Source of the DNA: Parcubacteria group bacterium GW2011_GWD2_42_14
GTDB lineage: Bacteria > Patescibacteriota > Minisyncoccia > Phycocordibacterales > UBA12088
NCBI GenBank assembly: GCA_000998045.1
Contig: LCCS01000002.1
Span: 1 to 62,811 of the forward strand
DNA: 62,811 bases
Direction: 5' to 3'
The translations under genes and the position numbers were made by a program. Under the pieces are notes generated by a model. It did not search any database. It was not told the DNA's origin and worked only from the letters and a program-made list of their open reading frames with translations. Positions 5,001 through 47,567 of the stretch are shown one piece after another. Each line of letters starts with the position of its first letter. Within the stretch, counting starts at the first letter, position 1.

Positions 5001-6206
5001 ATGAAAAATAACAGAAGGTTTATAATGGTGCTGATCGTTTTCTTCACCCTTCCGGAAGTTTTGTTTGGAGTAGTTAGTATTTTTACAGGCTTTACTCCTG
5101 GGATGCAATTCCTTTTAGGGGCGATTGTATCGCTACAGTTTTTGGTTGCCTTATTCTTGATTACTGCTCCGCTTACTGCTGGACTATTTGTGAGCACGGT
5201 TAAAAAACCAAAACACATTCCATTTTTACCGCTTTTTGCTGCCGTTGAAAATGGTAGATCAAAAGCTATTGTTGACCAAGGTGGAAATGCGGTGCGTTAT
5301 GTTGTAAACAAACATGATGCCGGGTTTCATTTGAAAACGGAATTTAATGGAATTTCGTCGGAAGATAATAAATGGAATGTTGTTGAAAAAGAGTATTCCA
5401 ATGCACGAAATTTTTGGGAAAAAAGAGTTGAAGATAAAACAGGCTTGGTGTTTGTTGGTATCTTCCCTTGGAGGAGAGTGTATCACTATGAGTTACATCC
5501 TATAAAAATGTTAACAAAAAGTGGTACTAGAACTTTGGTTATATCAGAATCAGAGACATCAGACCATGTTCGTGTGAGAGAGTTTAACTGGGGAGCCCAG
5601 GTAACAGTGCTTCTAAAAGACATGTTCCAGGTTTCCATCCTTTTTTCGTTTCGTCTTATGTGTACAAATCCACACAAACTCTTGTTTGGTGTAGATAATT
5701 GGGACGAAAGCTTTGCAGATGCGATTGCTTCTCGGACCATTGAAACTCTCCAAAATATCAAATTGGAGAAACTAACCGAACCTGGTACTGGTGCTAAGGG
5801 TATGATTGCAGACAATGTTTCAAAAATTTCACTCGACGTTGAACCAAAAACAGAAGTGAATTGGGGTTTGAGAGTAATTGAAACCCAAATCTCAAAGTAT
5901 GAATTCCTCCCCTTAACTGAAGAAGAGAGAAAGGCACTTACCGTTGTGGAGGTTACGAGACGAAGAATGGATGCTCGTGCAATCGAGTACAGTACTGAAA
6001 AGCTGGGTGAGAGTGGTGTAGTGGAAGAAAGGGCTAAGGTGATTGAGGCTCATGGCGTTGCAGGTATGCAGGCCAGTCGTGATCAAATGCTCGAAACTGC
6101 TGCAAAAGATGGGCAACAAACAGTAATAACAGGACTGAGTAATACTCAACCATCAGAGGAAGGTGAGATTGTAAAACTTCTTAAGGCCTTACTTGCAAAA
6201 AAATAG
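5001..6206 (+). CDS. membrane-anchored protein with an SPFH/band-7-like domain (tentative)
   Basis: A strong Shine-Dalgarno site precedes the start. The product has N-terminal transmembrane helices followed by segments resembling an SPFH fold (GLVFVGIFPWRRVY..., DHVRVREFNWGAQVTVLL..., ADAIASRTIETLQNIKLEKL). Confidence 0.45.
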   Translation: MKNNRRFIMVLIVFFTLPEVLFGVVSIFTGFTPGMQFLLGAIVSLQFLVALFLITAPLTAGLFVSTVKKPKHIPFLPLFAAVENGRSKAIVDQGGNAVRYVVNKHDAGFHLKTEFNGISSEDNKWNVVEKEYSNARNFWEKRVEDKTGLVFVGIFPWRRVYHYELHPIKMLTKSGTRTLVISESETSDHVRVREFNWGAQVTVLLKDMFQVSILFSFRLMCTNPHKLLFGVDNWDESFADAIASRTIETLQNIKLEKLTEPGTGAKGMIADNVSKISLDVEPKTEVNWGLRVIETQISKYEFLPLTEEERKALTVVEVTRRRMDARAIEYSTEKLGESGVVEERAKVIEAHGVAGMQASRDQMLETAAKDGQQTVITGLSNTQPSEEGEIVKLLKALLAKK

Positions 6207-6223
6207 TTTAAAGGAGTGAAACT

Positions 6224-7051
6224 ATGAGCTGGTTCCTGTTTGGATTTATATCCACCTTGACGCTAATTGTGGGTGCGGGTGTTTTTGTTTATGTTCTAAA
6301 AACATCCACCACAAAAACAACTCTAAAACCAACATCTGAAGGAGATTCTAAAACAACTTCACCGGCAACTTCGCCAAATGTAAAAGTTGTTGTAACAACA
6401 ACTAAAAGTAACACTTATGTTGTTGTAGGTATGGTACTGCTTCTACTCGTCCTTTTTGGGGTAGTAGTGTTTACCTACCCAATTCTGAAGAACGTCAACT
6501 ACCATGGGTATGGTTCTGTTTTTCCTTACTCACTGGCTGTAATTGTTGGGTGCTTGGTGTACTACATGAGAACAAAAAAGGAGGAGAAGTTACGCTCGGC
6601 ACTACTTGCCACCACAGGCACCGCGATATTGATAGCGTTGTGGATGTATCACGGGCAGCTAGGCGCACTTTTAGTTGGGTCGTCGAGTAAGGTAGTAGGA
6701 CAGGTTACCCCGATATATGTAGAAAAGGAGTTCCTGGTCTTCCTAATCGCACCCTTGATGGGCCTGATGAGCTACTACTTGAGCGACCGAGGATACAAAA
6801 GATTTTCCTATGCGCTCATGATAACTATCGCAACAGCGGTTGTGATAGCGCTTTGGATTCATCCGGAAGTGCTGAAAGAGGTCGTTAGACCTTTTGGTAC
6901 AACTTCACTTGTAGAACACGCTAAGGATAGCAGTTCGAAGTTTGCTGTATATCTGGCAGTGGTATTGTTTATTCTCGCAGTTCTTTCTGGGAAGCTTATT
7001 GAAGTCATTATTGGAACGGCTTTGATGCTTATTCTCTGGAACTGCTTTTAG
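6224..7051 (+). CDS. polytopic membrane protein of unknown function
   Basis: An AAGGAG Shine-Dalgarno site precedes the start. There are multiple hydrophobic helices and a Thr/Ser/Lys-rich linker after the first helix. The gene is followed by a terminator. Confidence 0.65.
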   Translation: MSWFLFGFISTLTLIVGAGVFVYVLKTSTTKTTLKPTSEGDSKTTSPATSPNVKVVVTTTKSNTYVVVGMVLLLLVLFGVVVFTYPILKNVNYHGYGSVFPYSLAVIVGCLVYYMRTKKEEKLRSALLATTGTAILIALWMYHGQLGALLVGSSSKVVGQVTPIYVEKEFLVFLIAPLMGLMSYYLSDRGYKRFSYALMITIATAVVIALWIHPEVLKEVVRPFGTTSLVEHAKDSSSKFAVYLAVVLFILAVLSGKLIEVIIGTALMLILWNCF

Positions 7052-36109: not shown

Positions 36110-36262
36110 ACTAGTAGTATACCTGAAAGGAAAAATGAGTCAACAAAAAAGCTATTGACTCACTGTTTCGTATAGTTTGTTTCAGGAAAGTTATATAAAA
36201 GCCCATTTTTTTCTTAATCTGTGGCTATTTTCCGTTCGTACAAATTGTGCGACACTATTGGT

Positions 36263-37102
36263 ATGCCAAAAACAGAACTTGAGTCCCTGAAAGATGCGTA
36301 TCTATCATCTATTGCGACTGAGCAAGGAAAAAGCAAAAAAACAGTAGAAAACTATACTCGTTATTTAGATAGATTCTTCTCGAATACTCAAGTAATACAC
36401 CCTAAAGACATCACGATTCCAATTGTGGAGAAATATCGTACTGGACTTACGGTGTTGAAAACCAATACTCAAAACTATCATCTCACAGCGCTTAGGAGAT
36501 TACTTGATTATTTGAAGAAACATCAGGTTTCGTCCCTTGAACCTGAAATGATAAAGCTTACCCCGAGTACCACTTTCTCAGTACAGAGCATGTCTCCACA
36601 CGACGTGAGGAGTTTGTTGCAAGCATCTCAAGGTAAGGATGTAAAGAGCCTACGAGATCGTGCAATCCTACTTTTGTTTTTCAGAACAGGTATGCGAGTA
36701 TCCGAACTGTGCGCGTTAGATGTTGATAGTTTTTCTGATAATAGACTTGTGAAGTATGGAACAGGAGTACGTGCGCGCAGTGTTTTGCTACCGACAGAAG
36801 CAAGAGATGCTTTATGTGCGTACCTTGATGTGAGGAGTGACCCCCATAAAGCATTGTTTGTAAACAATGGGAAGCGGTTTTCATCGGAGGGCGACACTCG
36901 GTTGAGTGTTCGTCAGGTAGAGAGGATTATCAAACAATGCGCTCTACAAGTGGGAATTGTGTCAGTAGTGACACCACAGAGATTGCGTTCTTTATATGCA
37001 CAGGATTTGCTCAAAAACGGCGCAGATGTTGGGTCTGTACAAGAATTACTTGGTCACCAGCATGTTGCATCTACAAAAGTGTACTACAAAAATAATAAAT
37101 AG
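36263..37102 (+). CDS. tyrosine recombinase of the XerC/XerD family
   Basis: The product has RDRAILLLFFRTGMRVSELCALDV and LRSLYAQDLLKNGADVGSVQELLGHQHVASTKVY, matching the R..H-R-Y catalytic pattern. Confidence 0.8.
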   Translation: MPKTELESLKDAYLSSIATEQGKSKKTVENYTRYLDRFFSNTQVIHPKDITIPIVEKYRTGLTVLKTNTQNYHLTALRRLLDYLKKHQVSSLEPEMIKLTPSTTFSVQSMSPHDVRSLLQASQGKDVKSLRDRAILLLFFRTGMRVSELCALDVDSFSDNRLVKYGTGVRARSVLLPTEARDALCAYLDVRSDPHKALFVNNGKRFSSEGDTRLSVRQVERIIKQCALQVGIVSVVTPQRLRSLYAQDLLKNGADVGSVQELLGHQHVASTKVYYKNNK

Positions 37103-41202: not shown

Positions 41203-41277
41203 GCGCCCGTAGTGAAATGGATATCACTCCGGTCTTCGGAACCGTCATTCCAGGTTCGAGTCCTGGCGGGCGCACCA
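41203..41277 (+). tRNA. tRNA-Arg(TCG) with an encoded CCA end
   Basis: A cloverleaf folds by hand: acceptor GCGCCCG/CGGGCGC, D stem GTGA/TCAC, anticodon loop CTTCGGA and T arm CCAGG-TTCGAGT-CCTGG. Confidence 0.9.
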
Positions 41278-41323
41278 CAACACAAAAACCTCATCACCAT
41301 GAGGTTTTTGTGTTGTGGTGCGC
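41270..41323. repeat. perfect 25-bp-stem palindrome that includes the 3' acceptor strand of tRNA-Arg
   Basis: GCGCACCACAACACAAAAACCTCAT, a CACC loop, then ATGAGGTTTTTGTGTTGTGGTGCGC. Confidence 0.9.
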
Positions 41324-41389
41324 CGAGTAAGGTGCCTACGCACCTTACGCCCAGACTCGAAGACACAGAGCATGTTGCGTAGCAACAGC

Positions 41390-41484
41390 GAGTGGCCGTC
41401 CAAGAATGCGAGTATACTTTGTCCTCCACCAGTGAGCGGAGGACAAAGTATCCGCAATTCTGGGACGAGTCCTGGCGGGCGCAC
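41390..41484 (+). ncRNA. conserved tRNA-linked structured element, copy 1 (unknown class, strand uncertain)
   Basis: GAGTGGCCGTCCAAGAATGCGAG, then a 14-bp hairpin, then ATCCGCAATTCTGGGACGAGTCCTGGC. Both blocks are identical or nearly identical to 47399-47476. The tail repeats 18 nt of the tRNA-Arg 3' end. Confidence 0.5.
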
Positions 41485-41575
41485 ATAAAATACAAAGACC
41501 CCGTTTCTATGGGGTCTTGTATTTATTGAACCCCTCACCTCGAATAGATGAGGTGAGGGGTGTGTGGATGTGCCA

Positions 41576-42120: not shown

Positions 42121-42909
42121 ATGGACTTTGTTGTTGATCAGTTTAAATTCTTGGGGCTTAACAATCGTGAGATACGAGTTTTTACTTCTATTGGTACCTT
42201 TGGTCAAATGAATATGACGAAAATAGCTTCACGATCGCAACTACCACGCACCACGGTAGATGCTATTGTGAGACGACTTTTTAAACAAGGTCTTATTTCA
42301 AAAGAGAAAGTAAATGGACACTTCGAATATTTTGTTCAACCTAGTGAAGTGGCAGACAAGCTCGATTTGCTTGAGCAGAAACTACGTCCAAAGAAACCGA
42401 CAGAAAAGGAACAAGAACCCTCAATAACGGAGGAAAAAATAAATGACGAAAAAAACGTCATCGCCCTAAATCCTATAGACATTTTGGAAATAAGTTTCAA
42501 AACTCATCGTGCGGATAGGGTGCGACTTATGCTCTCGCATATACAGCGTGAGGGAGAGAAAAGTTGTGTGGAGAGGCTGCGGGTATATACCAAATTGGCT
42601 GTAGAGAACCAGATGAAATTTGACGTCCTGTTATCCCCACAAATTGCAGATGCAATATACGGAAAGAAGCATTTATTTGCATATTCTCAAGCCTCACTGA
42701 ATATACGTCTTAATATTATTCCTGCTTTCTACAGTATTTTGGAACATGATGTGTGTATGTTTCGGGATTCAGTTATGCTCATACATACCCATAAGAACAC
42801 CATAGAAAAAATAGATTCCTTAACACATGTTGATCTCTGTAACCACCTACTCACCATAGCTTCTGAGGTGGGGTGGAGTGTAGATTTGGTTACTTGGCTA
42901 AATAAGTAA
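42121..42909 (+). CDS. TrmB-like winged-helix transcriptional regulator with an uncharacterised C-terminal domain
   Basis: The N-terminus reads LGLNNREIRVFTSIGTFGQMNMTKIASRSQLPRTTVDAIVRRLFKQGLISKEK. Confidence 0.55.
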   Translation: MDFVVDQFKFLGLNNREIRVFTSIGTFGQMNMTKIASRSQLPRTTVDAIVRRLFKQGLISKEKVNGHFEYFVQPSEVADKLDLLEQKLRPKKPTEKEQEPSITEEKINDEKNVIALNPIDILEISFKTHRADRVRLMLSHIQREGEKSCVERLRVYTKLAVENQMKFDVLLSPQIADAIYGKKHLFAYSQASLNIRLNIIPAFYSILEHDVCMFRDSVMLIHTHKNTIEKIDSLTHVDLCNHLLTIASEVGWSVDLVTWLNK

Positions 42910-43849
42910 CGAGTAAGGCGAGTAGCGAGAAAAGCGAAAAATGGACTAAAAGTTTAAAGTTATAAAGTTCATAACGCTGAAAGTAACGAAAAGTGCACAT
43001 GTTGCGGGAAAGTGGACTTTTTGTACTATGAAAGTTATGATATATCACGATACGAGAACCGCGGGTATGATTAAGTGGTATAATACGTCCTTGCCAAGGA
43101 TGATTCGGGAGTTCGATTCTCCCTACCCGCACATTATGCAAAAACAGCAGCTCATTTTGAGTTGCTGTTTTTGCATATCGTTGGGCAATCTGTGGATTTC
43201 CGCCTGTTCCAGACAGTGCATCCATTGCTTGTTGCGTAGTATCAAACACACTTGCCAAGTAAAACGCTAGAATCTTCTTTCCGTTTTCCCAGTCAAAAAG
43301 ATTTAGAAGATATTTTTCAACAGCAGACTGATCACCTCCAACTCTGGCTACTATATTTGCTATGTCTTGCATCACTATCTGTGCTCGCGGAGCGATGTCG
43401 TCTATATCAAGTAGGCGTTGGTTGCGCCCTTGAGACATTAAATGTCCTATTTCAGCAAAAGATCCATACACAAATTGATCTGAGCGCACGAGGATGTCTT
43501 GAGGGCCAAAACTTTTTATATTGCCAGAACGTTCTGGACTTATGTATTCGTCATACTCATTCGGGTCGACCCTCACTGGAATTAGATTTTCAACAAATTG
43601 AGTAAACTCTCGTATTTTTTCTTCTTTTTGGGCAAACTCATTATCCTCAGGGTGTAAGTCTCCAAAATATCGGGTTTTTAAGTTATACAGCTGCAATTCA
43701 CTTTTTTCCCGTAAACGGTCGAAATTATTTTGTTCGATTATATCGGAATACAATGTCCGAAGGTCTGGGTTTTTTGCGATTTTTTCTCGTTCTCCTTTCA
43801 CCAAATCATCTTCAGCGAACTTACTTAGAGCGGGAAATGTTTCTTTCAT
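42890..43849 (-). CDS. hypothetical protein whose 3' end is unreliable because the ORF reads antisense through tRNA-Gly
   Basis: The first 239 or so codons look protein-like. The remainder (RVGRIELPNHPWQGRIIPLNHTRG...) is the antisense translation of a tRNA and spacer. Confidence 0.45.
   Translation of the reverse strand: MKETFPALSKFAEDDLVKGEREKIAKNPDLRTLYSDIIEQNNFDRLREKSELQLYNLKTRYFGDLHPEDNEFAQKEEKIREFTQFVENLIPVRVDPNEYDEYISPERSGNIKSFGPQDILVRSDQFVYGSFAEIGHLMSQGRNQRLLDIDDIAPRAQIVMQDIANIVARVGGDQSAVEKYLLNLFDWENGKKILAFYLASVFDTTQQAMDALSGTGGNPQIAQRYAKTATQNELLFLHNVRVGRIELPNHPWQGRIIPLNHTRGSRIVIYHNFHSTKSPLSRNMCTFRYFQRYELYNFKLLVHFSLFSLLALLVTYLAK
42911..42929 (+). repeat. GAG-stop repeat (GAGTAAGGCGAGTAGCGAG)
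   Basis: It matches 4663-4681 at 18 of 19 positions and begins 2 nt after the stop codon. Confidence 0.75.
42948..42994 (+). repeat. AAAGTT-type post-stop repeat
   Basis: The sequence is AAAAGTTTAAAGTTATAAAGTTCATAACGCTGAAAGTAACGAAAAGT. Confidence 0.75.
43061..43131 (+). tRNA. tRNA-Gly(GCC)
   Basis: Acceptor GCGGGTA/TACCCGC, anticodon loop TTGCCAA and T arm GGGAG-TTCGATT-CTCCC. It is followed by the hairpin at 43138-43174. Confidence 0.85.
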
Positions 43850-44546: not shown

Positions 44547-45416
44547 ATGGCTCAGATAGACAAATACTCAATACGTGATTTGAAGGCGGATTTTCCCGAC
44601 GATGATACAGCTCTTGCTTTTATATTTGATGCATTACACAGTCACCAGTGCTCTTGTGGAGGTGTATATAAAAAGGTTTCTAACCGCCGTAAGTATCAAT
44701 GTTCAAAGTGTCGTTTCCAAATAGCACCTACTGCGGGCACAATCTTTCATAAATCTGATACTCCACTAAACCTATGGTTCCACGCAATCTGGGTATTTTC
44801 AAACGCAAAGAGTGGTGTTTCAGCTAAAGAACTTGAACGACAACTCGGTGTAACGTACAAAACTGCATGGCGCATGCTAAAGCTCATAAGAGAGGCACTT
44901 GGTGTGCATGGTGGCATGCTCCGTGGTGATGTTGAAACTGACCTTGGGTACTTTGGAGGTATAAAAAGCGCTGGAGCAAATAATGTAAATTTAAGTGAGT
45001 CTATCGCACACAAATCACCAGTCATGGTTGCGATAGAGCGTGGTGGTACTATGATTGCTGAAGTAGTCACAGACGGTACGACAAAAACTCACACAAGCTT
45101 TGTAGAACGAAACATTGAAAAAGGCTCTCGCCTACTTACAGACAAGAGCAATAAATATCACAGCGTGGCAAAAGGATACGACAGATTTTCAGTAAACCAT
45201 TCAAAAGGCGAGTATGCGTGGTGCGGTATACATATTAATCACGTAGAATCGTTTTTTGCTCACGTAAAGCGTTCGATGAAGGGGACGTACAAGGTTGTTT
45301 CAAAGAAGTATCTTCAGTTGTACTTGAATCAGTTTGCGTGGCTTTACAACAATCGACACAACGACAGGGCACGGTTTGGGGCACTGCTCGGTACCGTATT
45401 GCTCGGCGTAAGATAG
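44547..45416 (+). CDS. IS1595-family transposase (zinc ribbon plus ISXO2-like DDE domain)
   Basis: The product has CSCGGVYKKVSNRRKYQCSKCRFQIAPTAGTIFHKSDTPLNLWF...AKELERQLGVTYKTAWRMLKLIR. A TTGACA-N16-TATACT promoter lies inside the left inverted repeat, with the -10 element 6 nt before the ATG. Confidence 0.85.
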   Translation: MAQIDKYSIRDLKADFPDDDTALAFIFDALHSHQCSCGGVYKKVSNRRKYQCSKCRFQIAPTAGTIFHKSDTPLNLWFHAIWVFSNAKSGVSAKELERQLGVTYKTAWRMLKLIREALGVHGGMLRGDVETDLGYFGGIKSAGANNVNLSESIAHKSPVMVAIERGGTMIAEVVTDGTTKTHTSFVERNIEKGSRLLTDKSNKYHSVAKGYDRFSVNHSKGEYAWCGIHINHVESFFAHVKRSMKGTYKVVSKKYLQLYLNQFAWLYNNRHNDRARFGALLGTVLLGVR

Positions 45417-45540
45417 ATAGAAAATGGTTTTTATTGCTTTGTTGAGCCATATATTTATCTGTGGATAAACTTGCTTTTTTTAACATTTGCTGATATACTT
45501 CCAAATAAGTATGGGAACGAGCAAACGCTCAATCCCTGAC

Positions 45541-45563
45541 AAAACCCCCCTTGAGGGGGTTTT
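45541..45563. terminator. bidirectional terminator between the transposase and DUF3800 genes
   Basis: The sequence is AAAACCCCCCTTGAGGGGGTTTT. Confidence 0.75.
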
Positions 45564-45566
45564 GCA

Positions 45567-46379
45567 TTATGCAAGTCTACGTATCCCTTTTACTTGAACA
45601 CCACCCCCATCAAGCAAGGTTATCGCTTTCTCTTCATATATCTTTGCCACTTGCTTATCGAAATCTGTTTGACCATTATACAACAACTTATCGGTCATTC
45701 TTTCTTTCACGTTAGTAAAGTGCGCACCAATATCTGCCAGTTGAGTTTCAGGATCATGGTTATTTTTTGTTACAAAAGACAAGCACGTAAGACGTTCACG
45801 CACCTCTAAACTGGTTAAACCGTCAATCCCGTTACATAAAATAGCGTTATATGCAGCCAAGATGTCACTATCCTGGTTTTTATCTGAAGCTTCAACCACA
45901 ACATGCCCACTTGCTTTTTTCTTTTTGAGCAAGTATGAAATATACATACGTAGTACCTCTTTAATCAAACGTCGAGTCAATTCTTTTTCATGTGTTGTTA
46001 CTACTTTCCATCCTTCTTCAACAGCTTTCTTTATTGGTGGATTGTTTTCAAGCCATTTTATTTTGTTTACACCAACCCATATAAACTGAAATCCAGAAGA
46101 ACTAAGGTATTGTAAAAAGTCTGCACGAAATTCATTTAAGAGTTTCTCGTTACCTTTGAAAATCTCAAAATCCCCATTCAAACGTCGTATATTGTTACCT
46201 CTGAAAACCGTCTTTGCCTTATGACCCCAGTATTTAAAACGAATTTGGTCGTCTCTTTTTTTTAAAAAATCAACATTGTTCTCATGTGTTAGTAGGGCAC
46301 CGATTGAAAAATGTGGTGCGAACGTGGCGATATTTGTCAGTGTATTTTTCCCAGACTCATCAAGATAAAGCTTAAACAT
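45567..46379 (-). CDS. DUF3800 family protein
   Basis: The N-terminus MFKLYLDESGKN fits the DUF3800 pattern as I recall it. The product is 270 aa. Confidence 0.7.
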   Translation of the reverse strand: MFKLYLDESGKNTLTNIATFAPHFSIGALLTHENNVDFLKKRDDQIRFKYWGHKAKTVFRGNNIRRLNGDFEIFKGNEKLLNEFRADFLQYLSSSGFQFIWVGVNKIKWLENNPPIKKAVEEGWKVVTTHEKELTRRLIKEVLRMYISYLLKKKKASGHVVVEASDKNQDSDILAAYNAILCNGIDGLTSLEVRERLTCLSFVTKNNHDPETQLADIGAHFTNVKERMTDKLLYNGQTDFDKQVAKIYEEKAITLLDGGGVQVKGIRRLA

Positions 46380-46487
46380 CTTGTAAATTATACGCCTAAG
46401 AACACATCACCACAACGTAATCAATTTCAATTATTATGCCATCAAGGGATAGGTGTGGATAACTCTGGGTATAAGGGGATAAAGGAC

Positions 46488-46904
46488 ATGTACCATAGAG
46501 ACGAAATGGCTCAAAATAAGCATATTGCAATCGGACAGCTTGGTGAAAAAATAGCTCAAAAATACTTGGAGAATAGAAAATTTCGCTTTATTGAGCGGAA
46601 TTTTCGGAAAAAATGGGGAGAATTAGACATTGTTATGCAGAAAGACAATGTCCTACATTTTATTGAAGTAAAAGCTGGTTCTTTTCATGATTCTGTCCCT
46701 AAGGATGGGGAAGAGTCATATAGACCAGAGGATCATATGCATTTTCATAAAAAAACTCGCATGAAGCGAATTATTCAGTCCTACCTTTTGGAAAAGAAAG
46801 TACCTCCTCATCAAGAGTGGACGATAGACCTTGTGGTTGTACATATGAACATGGAGACAAGAAAGGCGCAGGTTCGTATTTTAGAAAACATCCTTCTTGA
46901 TTAA
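46488..46904 (+). CDS. yraN: YraN/UPF0102 family endonuclease-like protein
   Basis: The product has IGQLGEKIAQKYLENRKFRFIERNFRKKWGELDIVMQKDNVLHFIEVK. The start is ATG 46488, preceded by AAAGGA. Confidence 0.75.
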   Translation: MYHRDEMAQNKHIAIGQLGEKIAQKYLENRKFRFIERNFRKKWGELDIVMQKDNVLHFIEVKAGSFHDSVPKDGEESYRPEDHMHFHKKTRMKRIIQSYLLEKKVPPHQEWTIDLVVVHMNMETRKAQVRILENILLD

Positions 46905-47150
46905 CATAAACACCTCTATACCCGTGCGACCATAGCAAAATAAAGAAAAAGGTGGTAGATTTTATCGACACATACGAAAGTGAGTAGAGGGGCACACCTC
47001 GACACTCACGAAGTAAGTGACGGGGTGTACCCTGTAGCTGAATTTCAATTCAGCTACGCTGGCACATCTTGTAATATTTGAGGTAAGATTCGTATTCAAG
47101 TTCAAGTGGTTATTTTTCGATGAAAGTATTAACCAATTGAAATTTCACTA

Positions 47151-47221
47151 CGGGGTGTAGCATAGTGGCAGTGTTCGCGGTTTGGGACCGCGCGGTCCGG
47201 GTTCGATTCCCGGCACCCCGA
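47151..47221 (+). tRNA. tRNA-Pro(TGG)
   Basis: Acceptor CGGGGTG/CACCCCG, anticodon loop TTTGGGA and T arm CCGGG-TTCGATT-CCCGG. Confidence 0.9.
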
Positions 47222-47273
47222 CAAAATAGTAAAACCGAAGGTATACCTTCGGTTTTACTATTTTGTCGGGGTG
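47214..47273. repeat. perfect 28-bp-stem palindrome that includes the 3' acceptor strand of tRNA-Pro
   Basis: CACCCCGACAAAATAGTAAAACCGAAGG, a TATA loop, then CCTTCGGTTTTACTATTTTGTCGGGGTG. Confidence 0.9.
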
Positions 47274-47398
47274 AGCAAGCAACCAATGTTGCTTGCGTCC
47301 GGAATCGCACCACAAGAGTATTTCCATTTTCATAGTCGTTGTCATTCCTTGAAAATTTGGTCAAGCCACGGAACATGTTCCGTGGCGCGAGGAACTGT

Positions 47399-47476
47399 GA
47401 GTGGCCGTCCAAGAATGCGAGAAGTTTTGAGTGCAGATCACGAAAAAACATCCGCAATTCTGGGACGATTCCTGGC
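47399..47476 (+). ncRNA. conserved tRNA-linked structured element, copy 2
   Basis: GAGTGGCCGTCCAAGAATGCGAG, then a different hairpin, then ATCCGCAATTCTGGGACGATTCCTGGC. Confidence 0.5.
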
Positions 47477-47567
47477 TCCTTTATTTTGTACAACGTAATA
47501 TTGTTGATACTATTACTAATATGAATTTGCACAATAACGAGTTAGGTGAAATTGAGTTCAAACAATT

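Follow-up and report, generated by a model that had tools for sequence, protein, structure and literature searches.

In the 62,811-nt stretch of DNA analysed here (the window: contig LCCS01000002.1 of Parcubacteria group bacterium GW2011_GWD2_42_14, positions 1 to 62,811 of the forward strand), the genes for tRNA-Arg(TCG) and tRNA-Pro(TGG) are each followed by a small, highly structured unit, which we call copy 1 and copy 2, respectively (Table 1). Both units repeat one segment of the tRNA, designated X, which extends from C56 of the T-loop through the discriminator base, and also contain its antisense copy X', composed of an acceptor part (X'a) and a T-stem and T-loop part (X't). The original prediction, made from the tRNA-Pro locus, described a perfect palindrome that follows the tRNA and includes its acceptor strand, then a hairpin with a 9-bp stem and a 4-nt loop, and then a further hairpin, all of which are present. 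The palindrome consists of two 30-nt arms, 100% complementary and separated by 0 nt, that start inside the acceptor 3' strand; the 9-bp hairpin (hairpin 2) has its strands at 47275-47283 and 47288-47296, as also detected by a repeat search; and the third structure is a perfect palindrome of 11+11 nt (47365-47386) that replaces the inner hairpin of helix P4. The large palindrome takes in the tRNA 3' end because X'a abuts a terminator-like hairpin located directly after the tRNA. This inner part (CCGAAGG-TATA-CCTTCGG, then TTTT) was recognized as terminator-like by eye and is skipped by the terminator scan because its T run sits within the longer stem. Two additional features were missing from the original description, namely the antisense T-stem and T-loop (47298-47307) and a nested 55-nt insertion, module M (47308-47362).

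The two copies share much more than their position after a tRNA. The 23-nt arm GAGTGGCCGTCCAAGAATGCGAG is identical in both (41390-41412 and 47399-47421), occurs exactly twice in the window and was found 0 times in shuffled sequences; the first 19 nt of the second arm are likewise identical (41450-41468 and 47450-47468), again with exactly two occurrences in the window and no shuffle yielding two. As predicted, the longer 27-nt block differs between the copies by one base (CGAGTCC in copy 1, CGATTCC in copy 2), and this sole G/T difference between the arms tracks the local T-loop, CGAGT in tRNA-Arg and CGATT in tRNA-Pro. The copies also align beyond their arms, the stretch from the palindrome to the arms holding extra conserved blocks as well as a hairpin that covaries, and both have folding z-scores well below those of shuffled sequences (-14.7 for copy 1 and -9.3 for copy 2).

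Table 1. Features of the tRNA-Arg and tRNA-Pro loci and of the units that follow them.
Feature	Position	Strand	Evidence
tRNA-Arg(TCG), host of copy 1	41203..41277	+	ARAGORN; Rfam
Copy 1 unit: palindrome, antisense acceptor strand, hairpin 2, antisense T-stem/loop, type 1 core without module M	41278..41465	+	model R1, 134 bits
Copy 1 tail CGAGTCCTGGCGGGCGCAC, exact 19-nt direct copy of the tRNA-Arg 3' end (= 41257-41275)	41466..41484	+	
Native tRNA-Arg flank, opening with a terminator; flank start ATAAAATACAAA	41485..41527	+	terminator scan; flank comparison
tRNA-Pro(TGG), CCA unencoded, discriminator 47221	47151..47222	+	ARAGORN; Rfam RF00005, 61.5 bits
X of tRNA-Pro, CGATTCCCGGCACCCCGA, repeated downstream antisense and sense	47204..47221	+	
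Palindrome: acceptor 3' strand, terminator-like hairpin (CCGAAGG/CCTTCGG then TTTT), antisense acceptor strand	47214..47273	.	
X'a TCGGGGTG, antisense acceptor 3' strand and discriminator, 8/8 complementary to the local tRNA	47266..47273	+	
AG, hairpin 2 (CAAGCAAC-CAAT-GTTGCTTG), CG, placed exactly where acceptor and T-stem meet in the antisense copy	47274..47297	+	
X't TCCGGAATCG, antisense T-stem 3' strand and T-loop	47298..47307	+	local-alignment score vs tRNA complement 7/10
Module M, nested 55-nt insertion (CACCACAAGAGTATTTCCATTTTCATAG...TTGAAAATTTGGTC)	47308..47362	+	
Type 1 core, first half: helix P4 (GCCAC/GTGGC), tandem G.A internal loop, inner hairpin	47363..47406	+	
Type 1 core, second half: helix P5, variable hairpin enclosed by the two conserved arms (GTCCAAGAATGCGAG ... 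ATCCGCAATTCTGGGAC)	47407..47466	+	
Tail, decayed direct copy of X, CGATTCCTGGCTCCTTTA, joining the core at T-loop C56	47466..47483	+	

The tail of copy 2 had been thought not to match the local tRNA-Pro, which proved wrong: it is identical to X at 13 of 18 positions and belongs to a 27-nt direct repeat with 70% identity (47191-47217 and 47453-47479; repeat search), and in the orthologous tRNA-Pro locus of a relative (L003) it is intact: the contig ends after 17 positions of the tail, every one of which agrees with the local tRNA 3' end. Consequently, of the proposal that the element is homologous to copy 1 instead of being a local duplication, the homology of the cores stands and the opposition does not, since the antisense segment and the tail are both copied from the local tRNA 3' end. 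The L003 unit has a core almost identical to that of copy 2 and a hairpin 2 that differs through compensatory substitutions, and in its palindrome an acceptor-stem substitution and an A/T indel are each mirrored on the opposite arm. At acceptor position 67, the copy 2 tail keeps the T found in L003; the functional tRNA and X'a have both changed, which is why the palindrome remains perfect. Copy 2 is a type 1 unit orthologous to that of L003 and, given its decayed tail and the insertion of module M (found in neither copy 1 nor L003), probably an old, partly decayed member of the family. Strain-level contigs of the window genome carry both units in identical form with no polymorphism, the one exception being an assembly gap in L043 at the apex of the palindrome.

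We searched for further members by scanning a genome collection with one arm (3 loci) and a metagenome collection with both arm cores (32 stretches, ~21 of them true members), and reached additional relatives via homologues of the CCA-adding enzyme gene that adjoins tRNA-Arg. Model R1 has 36 plus-orientation matches in 25 sources, and among the matches listed with an identifiable upstream tRNA all lie downstream of it and on its strand, the first unit 18-58 nt after the tRNA and arrays beyond. As to the question raised with the original prediction, whether copies always follow tRNAs, every copy found is downstream of a tRNA on the same strand wherever an upstream tRNA is identifiable. The layout is common to the family and always reads on the tRNA strand: tRNA, terminator-like palindrome, X'a, hairpin 2 between AG and CG, X't, conserved core and X. 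The direct copy of X starts at C56 in all units examined and runs to the discriminator or further. Unit size is ~170-260 nt, with ~190-260 nt between the direct repeats, and units occur at tRNAs of at least 12 identities, including Arg, Pro, Tyr, Trp, Met, Ser (three anticodons), Ala, Lys, Leu (two) and Cys, as well as Gly in relatives. About 13 of the 21 tRNAs that had not been used to find the loci have a unit, with all four tRNAs carrying one in L018, none of four in L051 and neither of the two tRNA-Gly genes of the window.

A model-free scan for copies of X, applied to the 41 tRNAs of the retained loci with upstream regions as controls, recovered the same arrangement. Most unit-bearing tRNAs have an inverted copy at +50 to +80 (9-11/11; upstream controls at most 9/11) and a direct copy at +150 to +300 (10-14/14; upstream controls at most 11/14), with a few units, seen with model R1 or by eye, lying outside these ranges. 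X' is the Watson-Crick complement of the tRNA 3' strand: in four tRNA-Ala units an A stands opposite U70, where the tRNA itself has G3, and ACTCGAA is found opposite the T-loop sequence TTCGAGT. These two details exclude a mini-tRNA in which X' would have been copied from the 5' strands of the tRNA itself. The inverted and direct copies have their centre of symmetry at the CG of the T-loop TTCGAA. X' fits the proximal tRNA slightly better than the tail does (means of ~16/18 and ~14.5/18), and the tail is decayed in 5 of 13 units. In tRNA-Ser units from three genomes, the proximal palindromes are similar and the sequences after the tail unrelated; therefore, the palindrome belongs to the unit. 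A candidate antisense segment in L013, apparently derived from another tRNA-Pro, was dropped, as this stretch sits in an insertion in the loop of hairpin 2.

The frame between X't and X accommodates at least four or five unrelated core families, all joining X within the T-loop and most exactly at C56; those other than type 1 were seen in L002, L006, L011, L016, L018, L001, L048 and L050. Type 2 cores read GGCGCAG..GACGAAAC-GCACTTAG..CTTAGTGAC, type 3 AAGGTTGAGCATG..GAAAGA and type 4 CATGGAAAGG..GTTCGATAGCGAAGCG, a fifth core follows tRNA-Arg in L050, and types 1 and 2b have a common basal stem (GTCCAAG/CTTGGAC). Hairpin 2 is missing from some units. Module M (..GAGTATTTCCATTTTC..TTGAAAA.TTGGTC) is a separate mini-insertion of 55-75 nt, nested at the junction of X't and the core in several units; apart from copy 2 it occurs in L016, L018, L002, L001 and L048, and in L013 it lies inverted inside the hairpin 2 loop. 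Tandem arrays combine core types, with decay growing with distance from the tRNA.

Covariation points to a conserved fold. Hairpin 2, P4 and P5 are 99.4% paired across 13 aligned units, with 14 of the 26 pairs varying on both sides, and 99.1% paired across 23 units aligned with model R1 (17 of 26), against 32-46% pairing in a control in which partners were slid. All eight pairs of hairpin 2 covary across units (98-100% paired), P4 and the pairs 55-94 and 56-93 also covary, and the P5 pair 112-162 exists as C-G, U-A and A-U; since the search pattern dictated the lower P5 stem, the invariance of that stem is uninformative. RNAalifold independently yields the same helices, together with two covarying pairs that flank the tandem G.A loop in P4. 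Counts of G-U versus A-C mismatches over the aligned units do not discriminate the folding strand. The two ends of a unit can pair with each other, and the resulting helix is acceptor/T-like, bears a side arm and stops at the discriminator base; the unit has neither T-loop nor anticodon arm, the core replacing the T-loop.

Comparison with relatives provides evidence for insertion events. The window and L048 are identical over tRNA-Arg and 60 nt upstream of it, differ entirely in palindrome, hairpin 2 and core type, and become homologous again only at the native flank after the tail, where ATAAAATACAAA reappears in L048 behind the different units of that locus. At tRNA-Gly(gcc), the window has no unit, a 5'-truncated unit comes after the same terminator in L048, and L049 has a full unit. 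In L050, the insert at tRNA-Gly has its start inside hairpin 2, in the 3' arm, and a perfect repeat of ~62 nt, comprising X and the whole terminator, borders it on either side. Direct repeats always start in the T-loop and end either one position after the discriminator (19-20 nt) or after 34, ~55, ~62 or ~72 nt; those of 34 and ~72 nt are found in L013 and L016, and those of L050 and L022 include the recipient's own terminator. The initial suggestion that a structured or small mobile element is associated with tRNA 3' ends is supported by the same-strand tRNA upstream, the covarying helices, and the presence or absence, replacement and truncation of units in relatives.

In the window, Rfam 15 at the gathering score recovers tRNAs only and no family for the unit; in E-value mode, copy 1 and the unit of L024 give only chance-level matches to the terminator-like hairpin, with no group II intron family up to an E-value of 10. 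ARAGORN detects the upstream tRNAs only, and neither a transfer-messenger RNA nor a tRNA in the downstream unit. No open reading frame (ORF) is found inside the units, and clustering of neighbouring ORFs across loci reveals local synteny only, without any recurrent gene. Between the direct repeats there is no integrase, transposase or cargo, and neither TnpA nor TnpB turned up in the loci, to which this search was confined. Phage and plasmid collections gave no BLAST match; in viral contigs, the two-arm pattern and the single arm had 0 matches each, and the 13 matches to a core 18-mer, none of which fits model R1, are due to chance. TIGR-Tas systems consist of tandem 36-nt dual-spacer repeat units adjoining a Nop-domain Tas gene (PMC12045711), and neither such an array nor a Tas gene is present in the window or the family loci. 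Compared with IS200/IS605 elements, which have subterminal hairpins and do not duplicate their target, the units give a mixed picture, with hairpins near both ends and a duplicated target. The ends of the units are unrelated in sequence and their direct repeats extend from 19 to ~72 nt with no fixed length, at odds with MITEs (miniature inverted-repeat transposable elements). The start of the repeat at C56 is that of integrase islands, but integrase, cargo and a second precise junction are lacking, and truncation is seen at left junctions. By contrast, the combination of a precise 3' junction, a variable, truncated 5' junction and a variable target duplication (L050, L048, L013 and L016) is the insertion pattern of non-long-terminal-repeat (non-LTR) retrotransposons and short interspersed nuclear elements (SINEs). 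We found no published description of these units in the literature.

Other features of these loci deserve mention. Past the terminator of copy 1 lies a strong hairpin, GAACCCCTCACCTCGAATAGATGAGGTGAGGGGTG (41528-41565), whose style is conserved in L048. The tRNA-Gly(gcc) gene of the window that has no unit (43061-43132) is crossed, together with its terminator, by a 319-aa ORF on the opposite strand (42890-43849) that is called as a gene in public records; the part overlapping the tRNA is probably non-coding. Between both copies, the region 44547-46904 encodes an IS1595-family transposase, a DUF3800 protein and a UPF0102 (YraN-like) protein, for which we saw no tie to the units. Immediately 5' of tRNA-Pro, the window contains ~121 nt that L003 lacks (47020-47160). 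This insertion holds a hairpin (GTAGCTGAATT-TCA-AATTCAGCTAC) and lies between two copies of a 10-nt direct repeat (ACGGGGTGTA), the second of which includes the first 9 nt of the tRNA; it may represent a second kind of insertion, targeting tRNA 5' ends. A strain-level contig (L045) carries a 10-nt duplication (CAATTGAAAT) upstream of tRNA-Pro (~47133). The 140-aa ORF located antisense across tRNA-Pro and the entire unit (47110-47532, - strand), which public assemblies (L042, L045 and L046) list as a gene, is almost certainly spurious. Finally, in L001 (CAYWWH010000020.1, oriented ~6190-6260), a run of N joins a tRNA-Tyr unit to a unit with flanks of tRNA-Pro type, probably a scaffolding error caused by the units.

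We favour, with moderate confidence, the interpretation that the units are small, protein-less, highly structured insertion elements that, in a clade of Patescibacteria, settle at tRNA genes on their 3' side, a family that apparently has not been described so far. We read them as mobile because of the fixed junction in the T-loop, the variable opposite junction, the 5' truncation, the variable repeats, the replacement of units and the decaying arrays. A unit would be co-transcribed with its tRNA, as suggested by the strict co-orientation, the terminator called by the scan after the copy 1 tail and the hairpins after several tails that look like terminators by eye. Its 3' tail, identical to the tRNA, could then, at a tRNA gene carrying a nick at T55/C56, anneal to the strand complementary to it, and the 3' end of the target would prime the copying of the element, the intermediate being either RNA, in the style of target-primed reverse transcription, or single-stranded DNA. 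The annealed stretch would flank the insert on both sides, leaving the tRNA intact; the length of the hybrid would set that of the direct repeat, and incomplete copying would generate 5'-truncated inserts. A tail trimmed at the discriminator would produce repeats of 19-20 nt, and one reaching the native terminator repeats of 34-72 nt that carry the recipient's trailer. In copy 2, the displaced tail would have decayed and a second small element, module M, would have landed inside.

Several observations weigh against this interpretation. The ~240 kb of loci contain no reverse transcriptase detectable by a YxDD motif scan or by Pfam on selected ORFs, and the same Pfam search, which took in the genes neighbouring both copies and, in L049, several large ORFs lacking annotation, found no nuclease or transposase in or near the units. 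The only recombinase nearby is a XerC/D-like tyrosine recombinase (36221-37102), which is syntenic in L051, where units are absent. The model leaves unexplained both the match of X' to each of at least 12 tRNAs and the exact placement of hairpin 2 at the acceptor/T-stem boundary; the latter mimics the shape of a tRNA, a hint that a tRNA-binding enzyme may recognize it. The mirrored changes in the palindromes of the window and L003 look like constraint on the hairpin rather than a neutral relic, and small genomes with units after most of their tRNAs also resemble a host function. The unexplained X' match, hairpin 2 placement and mirrored palindromes keep a host-function reading alive. It is possible, though we advance this only tentatively, that the units are a bacterial counterpart of SINEs, protein-less, tRNA-shaped RNAs carried on tRNA transcripts, with ends trimmed by tRNA-processing enzymes, re-inserted into the T-loops of tRNA genes by nucleic-acid-guided, target-primed copying and with the tail as a programmable homing guide, or else structured RNAs of a new class, coupled to tRNAs and serving the host.

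A purely host-serving version, in which the units are non-coding RNAs inherited vertically as cis-acting 3' extensions of the tRNA transcript, seems to us rather unlikely. Such an RNA could be tRNA-shaped, its closing helix mimicking the acceptor/T-arm stack and hairpin 2 standing in place of the D and anticodon arms, and it might act in 3'-end formation, in processing by RNase P or RNase Z or, by sequestering the 3' half, in the control of tRNA folding. It would account for the strong covariation of the helices and the conservation of unpaired core nucleotides, for the orientation, which is always that of the tRNA, for the units after most tRNAs of unit-bearing genomes, for the retention of the tRNA-Pro unit in the window and L003 with a near-identical core and compensatory changes in hairpin 2, for the covariation of the palindrome with the tRNA acceptor stem and for the lack of any mobility gene found. 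However, L051 and the tRNA-Gly genes of the window do without units, at least four or five unrelated cores occupy one frame, and a given tRNA can be followed by wholly different units in close relatives. Insertion has left its signatures in the form of tandem arrays, nested insertions and 5'-truncated copies whose direct repeats are long and perfect, and the tail needed to form the tRNA-like closing helix is decayed in more than a third of the 13 units.

Miniature integrative elements moved in trans by a tyrosine recombinase are still less probable. A circle of ~200 nt with a tRNA 3' segment as its attachment site (attP) would recombine in the T-loop, the displaced 3' end becoming the tail. 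The repeat, which extends from the T-loop through the tRNA 3' end with a variable extension, is reportedly the classic site pattern of integrases of the T-loop type; the older copies of arrays are distal to the tRNA, X' fits the proximal tRNA better than the tail does, and there is a tyrosine recombinase gene in the window. But this gene is Xer-like and shared in synteny with a locus free of units, no integrase lies in or adjoining any unit, and the same cores are found with tRNAs of at least 12 identities, each of which would require its own attP and a matching antisense copy. Truncation at the 5' side and repeats with the recipient's terminator (L050 and L022) are at odds with two precise junctions, and DNA circles of ~200 bp are poor recombinase substrates. 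It is just as improbable that no dedicated machinery is involved and that template switching in replication or repair (quasi-palindrome or microhomology-mediated), driven by the nearly palindromic T-arm and the terminator hairpins, copied units between loci: the symmetry centre at the CG of TTCGAA, the palindromes kept perfect through mirrored changes, the varying left junctions and repeat lengths, and the lack of any enzyme found fit this idea, but the right junction keeps single-nucleotide precision in several core families and the cores are strongly conserved in sequence and structure, which argues for selection on the propagation or function of an element and not for accidents.

If the units are indeed mobile elements, a site-specific non-coding element would hit, harmlessly, one nucleotide position common to all tRNA genes, with its target-matching tail as a built-in guide. 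This would bear on the tolerance of selfish DNA in very small symbiont genomes, on tRNA genes as preferred landing sites and on guide-directed insertion outside the known RNA-guided systems. If they serve the host, they would constitute a hitherto unknown layer of tRNA biogenesis in Patescibacteria, and either the SINE-like or the host-RNA reading, if true, would amount to a new kind of system. The units make up much of the structured intergenic DNA beside the tRNAs of these genomes, and they have practical effects through assembly errors, as in the L001 scaffold join, and spurious ORF calls, as across copy 2.

Several known systems resemble the units in part. Genomic islands and prophages that target tRNA genes through T-loop tyrosine integrases also have a repeat from the T-loop to the tRNA 3' end, leave the tRNA intact and form tandem arrays; the units differ in being ~200 nt and not kilobases long, in having no integrase or ORF, in the occurrence of the same cores at at least 12 tRNAs, in the extra antisense copy of the target and in their 5' truncation. 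MITEs and the repetitive extragenic palindromic (REP), bacterial interspersed mosaic (BIME), Correia and RPE elements are likewise short, hairpin-rich, non-coding, modular or mosaic, nested and intergenic, but the units lack terminal inverted repeats of their own and a fixed-length duplication and are strictly tied to a single class of genes and a single nucleotide position. Class C group II introns insert right after terminator hairpins and move via RNA, whereas no group II domains were detected in the units by Rfam in E-value mode. The pairing of the unit ends as an acceptor/T-like helix recalls the tRNA-like 3' ends at which copying begins in the Neurospora Mauriceville retroplasmid and in plant viruses, although the units have no T-loop and there is no sign of CCA addition or of a polymerase. 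In type V-K CRISPR-associated transposons, the homing guide makes the end adjoining the tRNA gene carry a tRNA-identical stretch, a likeness to our tails that comes without cas or tns genes or a CRISPR repeat and in units of only ~200 nt. Site-specific non-LTR retrotransposons of the R2 type and SINEs differ from the bacterial units in that these have no reverse transcriptase or endonuclease partner found in the loci and, instead of an A-rich or partner-derived tail, one made of target sequence; nevertheless, both share co-orientation and probable co-transcription with a host RNA gene, a precise 3' and a variable 5' junction, 5' truncation and duplications of variable length, and in both a structured non-coding RNA would need an enzyme acting in trans.

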